The position numbers and the translations under genes are program-made. From a virus (lineage: Duplodnaviria; Heunggongvirae; Uroviricota; Caudoviricetes): 8,491 nt of DNA. Positions 5,919 through 6,437 of the stretch are shown one piece after another. How positions within the stretch are numbered: position 1 is the first letter of the stretch; the number at the start of each line of letters is the position of its first letter. The stretch lies in IMG/VR virus record IMGVR_UViG_2548876935_000015; one strand, written 5' to 3'. The notes below the pieces were generated by a model. It had not been told where the DNA came from. It saw only the letters and a program-made list of their open reading frames with translations, and did not search any database.

Positions 5919-6132
5919 GCATCACGTTACCATCTTCATTGAAAAACCTTTATCGTGTTACTTTTATCAATTGCACTTCAGTATAGAGTTATCCCAGACA
6001 GCACTTTAAAGACTTCTACATTACACACACCTTGTCTCCCCTTCTCGTCATATCTGCAAGACCGATATGCATGACGCAGTACATACGCTGAACTGCTTTA
6101 TCCATCTGCATATTCTAGTGCTAAAGCGACTT

Positions 6133-6160
6133 CAGTAGCAGAAGCAAAATTCTGCTACTG
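6133..6160. repeat. Perfect 11-bp inverted repeat (hairpin) with a 6-nt loop
   Basis: CAGTAGCAGAA-GCAAAA-TTCTGCTACTG. No U-tract on either strand, so not a canonical terminator; possible protein-binding site or RNA structural element. Confidence 0.5.
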
Positions 6161-6391
6161 TGCCAAACAGGAGGCCCACCTCGCCTGATGTGGCTAAAAG
6201 CAGGCACATAACAGCTAAGTATTTTCAACCAGAGAGAATCCTTAGCGTTGTGGTGAATGCGGCTCAGCGCACGCGGGTTAAGGTTGAGGCTGACAGTCGA
6301 CCTTCTGTGGATACCCACCCGCCTGGTGTGCAACCTTCGCCAGGCACCGGGAGGCACCCGGCACCACAACTTTATGCTGTGTGTAGTCCTG

Positions 6392-6437
6392 GCGGTACCA
6401 GTTTGTACCCTTGCTTCCGGCTGGTACCGCTCTTTTT
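6392..6437 (+). terminator. Intrinsic terminator-like hairpin on the plus strand
   Basis: GCGGTACCAG / CTGGTACCGC 10-bp perfect stem with a 19-nt loop, followed by TCTTTTT. No U-tract on the minus strand. Confidence 0.55.

Follow-up and report, generated by a model that had tools for sequence, protein, structure and literature searches.

Viral record IMGVR_UViG_2548876935_000015 of IMG/VR (Caudoviricetes) includes the 8,491-nt stretch analyzed here, referred to below as the window, in which a GC-rich, hairpin-dense block lies between a group of csp genes and yfdP. We find that this block contains, on the plus strand, a real non-coding gene, which is a sub-threshold addition to the known STnc100/PasD family rather than something fundamentally new. 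The window RNA belongs to a sister branch of that family that is found in the early-left leader of lambdoid phages resembling SfV, mEp460 and ST64B. Our favored interpretation, to which we assign a probability of roughly 0.7, is that 6246-6437 encodes a prophage small RNA of ~190 nt composed of a pseudoknotted core, a linker and an intrinsic terminator, with the terminator insulating the genes downstream and the RNA itself acting in trans. Labels such as L001 denote related loci used for comparison.

An earlier note, made from the letters of the sequence alone, had listed a structured RNA gene among several options for this block, and the covariance-model search that it proposed bears this out. 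With Rfam run in E-value mode, 6217-6439 on the plus strand aligns to positions 1-206 of the 206 positions of RF02076 (STnc100) with a score of 46.5 bits (E 9e-9), which falls 0.5 bit under the curated gathering threshold of 47 bits. The homology is not in doubt despite this narrow miss, and annotation pipelines would skip the window copy. All the early-left copies tested, those of SfV, ST64B and phiES15 among them, likewise score below the cut-off (30-46.5 bits). The window shows the hallmarks of the STnc100 core, namely GUGGUGAAU, the P2 hairpin, CCGGGAGGCACCCGGCACCA and closure by P1, followed after a variable linker by a 3' intrinsic terminator, while the promoter and late-operon context of canonical STnc100 are absent from it. 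Canonical members are expressed: EDL933 has 11 STnc100 copies, which are transcribed, one being Northern-positive (PMC5331693), and a copy located 75 nt downstream of stx2B overlaps the Hfq-bound RNA EcOnc27/sRNA103 (PMC12711010, PMC12370729). PasD1 and PasD2, two small RNAs of enteropathogenic Escherichia coli identified by Hfq RIL-seq, are reported to share structure and ancestry with STnc100 (bioRxiv 10.64898/2026.05.13.724894).

Closer to the window, an RNA from the same locus has been mapped experimentally. sRNA-17 of E. coli K1 strain RS218 is 193 nt long as determined by 5'/3' rapid amplification of cDNA ends (RACE) and Northern blotting, lies in an mEp460-like prophage and was reported to have no Rfam hit (Sun et al. 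2020, PMC7719688). The published primers make it span from CGUUGUGGUGAAUGCG.. to ..GGCGGUACCAG..CUGGUACCGCUCUUUU (end ..GGUACCGCUCUUUU; PMC7719688) and, with phage mEp460 used as a stand-in for the RS218 genome, its counterpart is found at L008 3853-4046, directly upstream of the yfdP leader. The position, the mapped 5' and 3' ends and the downstream yfdP leader are all shared with the window: the first 18 nt are identical (AGCGTTGTGGTGAATGCG), the core-closing CACCACAAC is common to both, 48 of 49 nt of the terminator agree and the 3' RACE end of sRNA-17 maps to the U-tract of this terminator. By this homology, the window RNA would extend from ~C6246 to U6435-6437 and thus have a similar length (~191 nt). 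However, the ~105-nt interior and the linker of sRNA-17 are unrelated to those of the window, so the homology does not extend over the whole length, and in sequence searches sRNA-17 lacks CCGGGAGGCACCCGG and gives no STnc100 match. Since the interiors are unrelated, the link between the two RNAs rests on locus, ends and architecture. Even so, its fold has the layout of the window RNA: after the closing helix come AAU, a P2 hairpin and a central domain, another hairpin abuts the helix on its 3' strand, and the linker and the same terminator complete the RNA. On these grounds, the window RNA is an allele at the sRNA-17 locus with an STnc100-type interior; the control by ArcA and the phenotypes were shown for the RS218 allele only.

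The minimum-energy fold of 6246-6437 (-79.4 kcal/mol, z -2.18) displays P1, P2, P4, P5 and the terminator, and leaves the linker largely unpaired. The core is the 5' 125 nt of the RNA and consists of P1, P2, P4, P5 and a pseudoknot. For comparative analysis, we used 120 viral contigs gathered by an invariant motif together with 12 species genomes. In 35 representatives with <93% identity, RNAalifold recovered P1, P2 and P5. The pairs of P1 are kept in 34-35 of the 35 sequences, and in 8-10 of them three P2 pairs have changed both partners, from C-G to G-C or U-A, while the invariance of P5 is built in, because the loci were collected by this motif, and carries no covariation information. As the MAFFT alignment of the variable middle of the core is unreliable, P4 and the pseudoknot were tested by structure-anchored scripts rather than by column counts. 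A strong P4 stem ending 1-2 nt before P5 is present in 61 of 89 unique cores, compared with 5% of shuffles, and each of its stem positions is occupied by 4-6 pair types. The P4 loop pairs with the segment following P2 with a mean energy of -9.7 kcal/mol in the same molecule, versus -7.0 when loops are swapped between molecules and -6.9 when they are shuffled (p ~1e-5). The core is therefore pseudoknotted, the paired strands being AAGGUU/AACCUU in the window and AAGGCUG/CAGCCUU in phiES15. In the fold, AAGGTT at 6280-6285 also has a local alternative partner at 6297-6304. A further helix, GCGGG/CCCGC (6273-6277 / 6318-6322), overlaps P2 and P4 and is not claimed, and neither in the window nor in 15 related loci did ARAGORN detect a tRNA or tmRNA. 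The linker, in which a TGCTGTGT motif (UGCUGUGU) immediately 5' of the terminator recurs across lineages with differing terminators, is a candidate target-pairing (seed) region. Searching the collected phage loci for complementarity to it returned a trivial self-antisense match and chance 9-10-mers only. The coordinates of all the features are listed in Table 1.

Table 1. Features of the block and its surroundings (window coordinates)
Feature	Position	Strand	Description
Inverted repeat	6133-6143 / 6150-6160		11 bp, perfect; 6-nt spacer; no U-run on either strand
Deletion junction	6172..6173		..CAAACAGGAG joined to GCCCACC..; 2-3 nt microhomology
Conserved upstream module	6174..6213	+	CCACCTCGCCTGATGTGGCTAAAAGCAGGCACATAACA; 40 nt
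P0 hairpin	6214..6246	+	arms GCTAAGTATTTTC / GAGAATCCTTAGC; directly 5' of core
Predicted small RNA	6246..6437	+	~190 nt; STnc100-type core, linker, terminator; ends by homology to RACE-mapped sRNA-17
P1, 5' strand	6247..6255	+	GTTGTGGTG; pairs with 6362-6370 and closes core
P2 hairpin	6259..6274	+	fold and both-side changes
Pseudoknot, 5' strand	6280..6285	+	AAGGTT; partner is P4 loop AACCTT, 6332-6337
P4 hairpin	6321..6345	+	arms GCCTGGTG / CGCCAGGC; loop holds pseudoknot 3' strand, 6332-6337
P5 hairpin	6347..6361	+	CCGGG-AGGCA-CCCGG; directly abuts P1 3' strand
P1, 3' strand	6362..6370	+	CACCACAAC; inverted repeat and fold
Linker	6371..6391	+	TTTATGCTGTGTGTAGTCCTG; 21 nt, mostly single-stranded
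Intrinsic terminator	6392..6437	+	stem 6392-6401 / 6421-6430, 10 bp, perfect; U-tract 6431-6437
yfdP-leader stem	6436..6528	+	~22 bp; -47.8 kcal/mol, z -7.3
Small hairpin in yfdP leader	6539..6554	+	
yfdP coding sequence	6575..6937	+	120 aa; first gene downstream; AGGAG Shine-Dalgarno 6563-6567

The predicted RNA ends with an intrinsic terminator. Its fold has a z score of -3.75, with 0 of 200 dinucleotide shuffles as stable, and in the minimum-energy fold the stem grows to 13 bp, followed by TCTTTTT at 6431-6437; a simple terminator scan misses it only because the loop exceeds 8 nt. In six lineages the terminator hairpins differ in sequence and each is followed by a U-tract. In loci where the core has no terminator (L138-L140 from Buttiauxella, L133 from Lelliottia, L134, L137 and L091), it lies 20-70 nt before the next start codon. 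While the terminator ending at 6437 that had been noticed earlier is thus real, the hairpin-dense region does not stop there, since structured RNA continues past this point into the 6436-6528 stem. This stem begins in the terminator U-tract, stops just before the conserved GUGGAGAAACC of the yfdP leader and shows compensatory changes in the alignment with ST64B. It occurs only where yfdP follows, as in mEp460, cdtI and Stx2c phages, and is absent in phiES15, where kil is the next gene; some phages share with the window only 6390-6580. It may be an RNase III site or an element controlling yfdP translation.

On its other side, the core is preceded by P0 and by the conserved CCACCTCGCCTGATGTGGCTAAAAGCAGGCACATAACA module. 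The module is near-identical in Cronobacter phage phiES15 and recognizable in Lelliottia (L009 4001-4040; L133), and its neighbor is always a variable gene, encoded on the opposite strand, whose start it adjoins. The module could fold as a small pseudoknot through CCAC/GUGG and GCCUG/CAGGC. phiES15 keeps the module although its neighboring P0 hairpin is wholly different, and the sequences at the P0 position in ST64B and phiES15, unrelated to that of the window, form hairpins as well. In L026 and L138-L140, the region ~20-90 nt upstream of the core holds one or two hairpins whose loops, UUCAAUU/UUCGAUU, resemble a T-loop (GUCCG-UUCAAUU-CGGAC is an example); they precede a conserved AGUGCUCUC just 5' of P1, and ARAGORN calls no tRNA there.

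The element is widespread. The nucleotide search suggested by the earlier note finds it in full upstream of yfdP: of 5,426 complete E. coli genomes, 1,169 have a match that covers 80% or more of the query. Seventeen phage records carry it too, functional phages such as SfV, SfII and ST64B have it, and it is present in Shigella, Lelliottia, Pantoea and Buttiauxella as well. The CPS-53 prophage of K-12 has no such element, its homology to the window beginning ~20 nt before yfdP, and K-12 data sets are consequently unusable here. A tblastn survey of neighboring genes, covering 136 occurrences, separates two branches: 50 copies of the window type (GGUGAAUGCGGCU..), which we call early-left, and 81 canonical ones (GGUGAAUCCCCC..). 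Early-left copies have a co-oriented repressor gene upstream in 39 of 50 cases and yfdP/Q/R or kil/gam (and int) downstream in ~38, the remaining copies having short flanks or no recognizable neighbor; a co-oriented Q or lysis gene was found next to none of the 50. Only the canonical type is co-oriented with the Q antiterminator gene (32/81) and holin/lysozyme genes (26-31/81). A sigma-70 promoter of its own, ending ~7 nt before P1, is likewise a trait of the canonical type: when at least 8 of 12 matches and an end 3-12 nt ahead of P1 are required, 57 of 81 canonical copies have one versus 0 of 50 early-left ones. In intact relatives of the window, the order is the repressor gene and its terminator, the early-left promoter, which is near-consensus (L001 6260-6287, 11/12 matches), a ~65-nt leader, the variable gene, the CCACCTCGCCTGATGTGGCTAAAAGCAGGCACATAACA module with P0, the RNA described here, the yfdP leader and then yfdP-yfdQ-yfdR through to int.

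The leader that directly follows the early-left promoter lies outside the window and deserves a separate mention. It is a conserved ~65-nt two-hairpin element (L001 6298-6372, L006 3410-3486, L007 3659-3738) common to many temperate phages, among them SfV, ST64B, mEp237, SPN3UB, ZF40 and YeP1. With putL and putR of HK022 it shares the motifs GAAC(A)GGC and YCARGAUGA, the two-hairpin layout and the position after the promoter, and it may be a put-type antiterminator RNA, although this identification is only suggestive.

How might such an element work? According to the small-RNA interpretation, transcription coming from upstream would end at 6392-6437 and yield a discrete RNA with its 5' end at the base of P1, as the sequence and the published mapping of the RS218 allele indicate. 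Because this branch has no promoter beside P1, that end would arise by processing or from a more distant promoter. In the lysogen, the terminator would keep yfdP-int silent by stopping any transcription not begun at the early-left promoter. After induction, polymerase starting at that promoter, possibly modified by the put-like leader, would read through it. The released RNA, by analogy with EcOnc27 and PasD, would act in trans together with Hfq, most likely via the linker.

Several points weigh against this interpretation, in addition to the score below the Rfam cut-off and the unrelated interior and missing STnc100 match of sRNA-17. The evidence for expression is published data on relatives, none of it from this allele or the window, and both Hfq binding and the seed are predicted only. 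A scan and inspection by eye, covering 6100-6300, revealed no promoter in 6172-6245 or beside P1 on either strand, and BLAST finds no similarity between HK022 put and the early-left leader. When sRNA-17 was deleted in RS218, with a cat cassette replacing the core and the terminator kept, yfdP rose 96-fold, and the two strongest "targets," yfdP and yfdR, directly follow the deleted locus (PMC7719688). This rise may reflect read-through from the cassette, that is, a polar effect in cis, and not regulation in trans. The orientation of the pKD3 cassette feeds this suspicion. Finally, 8 of 14 early-left lineages have no strong terminator after the core, and in 5-6 of these eight (including Buttiauxella, Lelliottia, Pseudescherichia and L091) the core runs directly into the ribosome-binding site of the next gene, which in Buttiauxella is yfdP-like. 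Because it is conserved in terminator-less lineages, the core is not merely the body of a terminated small RNA, and this invariant pseudoknotted domain probably does something in its own right, in cis or via a bound factor.

These terminator-less cores placed directly before a gene are also the starting point of an alternative that we consider unlikely, in which the element is mainly a cis-acting leader, the terminator a tL1-like gate and the 190-nt RNA a by-product with no function in trans. The core would then work on the transcript that contains it, for example by setting or shielding its 5' end or by binding polymerase or a protein. The lack of a P1-adjacent promoter in all 50 early-left copies and the invariable placement of the element after the early-left promoter and ahead of the first conserved early gene fit this view, as does the pseudoknotted core with invariant loops, which suggests recognition by a factor. 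So does the silence of yfdP in the wild-type RS218 lysogen, with ~0.5 reads while sRNA-17 is visible on a Northern blot (PMC7719688). It accounts less readily for the discrete, stable RNA that accumulates where the terminator is present, as seen by RACE and Northern blotting for sRNA-17, or for the reported complementation in trans of some sRNA-17 phenotypes (PMC7719688). Moreover, canonical relatives exist as independent genes that carry a promoter and a terminator of their own and frequently occur in tandem, and they are Hfq-bound with RIL-seq targets. The cis and trans readings are mutually compatible, and we retain a trans-acting small RNA as the preferred one.

A broader proposal, which we find quite improbable, is that the STnc100 core is an autonomous pseudoknotted RNA domain and not just a scaffold for small RNAs, so that a cis-acting module would yield the terminated small RNAs as one of its products. 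It is permitted by the terminator-less cores that precede genes, together with the 5' end mapped to P1 in a branch lacking a promoter beside it. In our structural model, the layout of the core recalls that of a tRNA: a 3-nt joint leads from the closing stem to P2, which resembles a D-arm, and after a central insert P5 stacks directly on the 3' strand of the closing stem. In lambdoid phages the core heads both antiterminated operons (early-left and late), where it could set the mature 5' end, for example as a processing signal of the RNase P or RNase E type, or bind polymerase or a host or phage protein.

The copy in the window is unusual in its surroundings. When 6100-6580 was compared by megablast with the 5,426 complete E. 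coli genomes, matches began only at 6172. The best one, in strain CFSAN004176, is 100% identical to the window right of the junction, and the whole window matches this strain as two pieces, the second of which (from 6172) is found in the same prophage at a distance of 9.8 kb from the first. The first piece, 1-6173, is a Qin-type late region with cspI, rzpQ, rrrQ, essQ, cspB and cspF, in which the late genes are on the minus strand. Relative to CFSAN004176, ~9.8 kb are gone here, comprising the Q antiterminator gene, the replication genes, cro and the cI repressor gene, as well as the early-left promoter and its leader, the 170-aa opposite-strand gene and the 65 nt that natively lie just upstream. 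The resulting junction is found in none of the 5,426 genomes. Since the early-left promoter, leader and variable gene were lost in this deletion ending at 6172, the window copy is an orphan. Upstream on the plus strand there is a single promoter-like site, which is weak, at 5906-5933 (3 sites found versus 2.2 expected by chance). The expression of this deleted copy is uncertain, and its loss is possible. Two side observations concern the flanking regions. At gathering thresholds, Rfam returns two matches and no other for the whole window, both to the cspA thermoregulator RF01766, full-length, at 4737-5176 and 1305-1721 on the minus strand (159 and 110 bits), covering cspB and cspI with their leaders. 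In intact relatives, the early-right region that is deleted from the window carries C4 antisense RNA and IsrK side by side, both above the Rfam thresholds (L001 4115-4303, L006 1226-1414 and L007 1409-1597, all on the minus strand).

This junction changes how the block is to be understood. The hairpins, the terminator and the rise in GC described in the earlier note are all present in the sequence, GC content being 0.57-0.59 at 6201-6500 versus 0.36-0.38 at 5801-6100, and the DNA is indeed GC-rich and hairpin-dense. The block is, however, not one unit, as 6130-6171 is a different segment joined to the rest by the deletion. The hairpin at 6133-6160 is stable on both strands (z -4.5 on plus, with 0 of 200 dinucleotide shuffles as stable, and -3.3 on minus) and is part of the left-hand Qin-type late-region segment and not of the RNA element. 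The earlier idea of a foreign fragment at a junction was right about the junction, at 6172/6173, and wrong about the origin: the block is the native neighbor of yfdP, and it is the csp side that is the newcomer, having been brought there by the ~9.8-kb deletion. That the block could be non-functional foreign scrap left at a recombination junction gains some plausibility from the existence of the junction in a deleted, defective prophage. We nevertheless judge it very unlikely, given the complete identity right of the junction to the intact yfdP-upstream element of CFSAN004176, and the conservation of the element across many genomes and viable phages with structure-preserving variation.

Could the block instead be a decayed protein-coding gene (6250-6560)? 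The RefSeq/NCBI pipeline calls a "hypothetical protein, frameshifted" over the equivalent of 6250-6560 (L001 and L002 7079-7389), and mechanical open reading frames of 105 aa (6160-6477, plus strand), 226 aa (6257-6937, plus strand), and 82 and 161 aa (minus strand) can be drawn. The earlier note held none of these to be credible, and we concur: they overlap, are not conserved and have no Pfam match. The 226-aa frame is an in-frame upstream extension of yfdP by 106 codons (6257-6574, plus strand), which probably arises from the GC-rich RNA sequence as a by-product. In phiES15, L037, L014, L091 and L121, 2-4 stops interrupt the frame open in E. coli and ST64B, and no frame is open in all lineages. 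Pfam gave no match at E up to 1, a large protein database not having been searched. Substitutions between E. coli and ST64B show no codon periodicity (10/15/17 by codon position), indels are of 1 nt, and variation keeps the RNA helices rather than a frame. A coding origin is thus highly improbable, and the RefSeq label of a frameshifted pseudogene looks like a systematic annotation artifact.

The remaining option, that the block is a nut/boxA site for N-dependent antitermination as in a nut/tR1-like region, is in our view extremely improbable. It was prompted by CCGCTCTTTTTACAA at 6427-6441, which resembles boxA (CGCTCTTTAACAA), and the early-left operon is indeed where lambda has nutL. However, the look-alike CGCTCTTT (boxA-like CCGCTCTTT) is simply the 3' arm of the terminator and its U-tract, and it is not conserved among copies: most of those in E. 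coli and Shigella read CCGTCCTTTTT, and the stems of ST64B, phiES15, L121 and L041 are unrelated. No boxB-like hairpin follows, so that the pairing of a CGCTCTTTA-like boxA with boxB that characterizes lambda-type nut sites is absent, and a nearer boxA-like string, CGCTCTTTAACAA in L001, is the reverse side of a minus-strand terminator.

These findings expose an annotation gap: an entire branch of a widespread family of prophage small RNAs scores just below the Rfam cut-off, and about one in five complete E. coli genomes as well as the serotype-converting phages of Shigella carry it. The branch ties sRNA-17 of meningitis E. coli, described as "novel," to the STnc100/PasD family, and it suggests a cis origin for the published up-regulation of yfdP upon deletion of that RNA. 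In the model that we favor, one terminator both makes a small RNA and insulates the prophage genes for excision and recombination. Given the division of the family between two operons (early-left and late), the pseudoknot and the lineages without a terminator, one may ask what role the invariant core plays.

Among the known systems closest to the window RNA is canonical STnc100, which is likewise prophage-borne and multi-copy in enterobacteria. Both have the closing helix GUGGUG/CACCAC, GGUGAAU, a P2 hairpin, the invariant CCGGGAGGCACCCGGCACCA, a P4 hairpin and the pseudoknot, and then a variable linker and an intrinsic terminator. In contrast to canonical members, the window RNA has G-C/C-G swaps in P2 (GCGG.. 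versus CCCCC..), an extra 5' hairpin P0 and no promoter abutting P1, and its place is behind the repressor gene in the early-left operon, where canonical members have theirs in the late operon, flanked by Q and the lysis genes. The PasD RNAs are, by their published description, prophage-encoded, terminator-ended kin of STnc100, but sit beside Q and lpxR in the late region. DicF of the Qin prophage is a small RNA from the immunity-proximal early operon of a defective lambdoid prophage, with no dedicated adjacent promoter and an intrinsic terminator at its end. Its terminator shows a weak, non-significant resemblance to that of the window (15.7 bits, E 1.5), but DicF is 53 nt long and lacks a structured core. 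As for lambda tL1/nutL and HK022 putL, the window element occupies the same map position and provides the first early-left terminator, to be overcome after induction. The difference is that the block itself is neither nut nor put, the put-like leader lying outside the window in the part of the prophage that was deleted.

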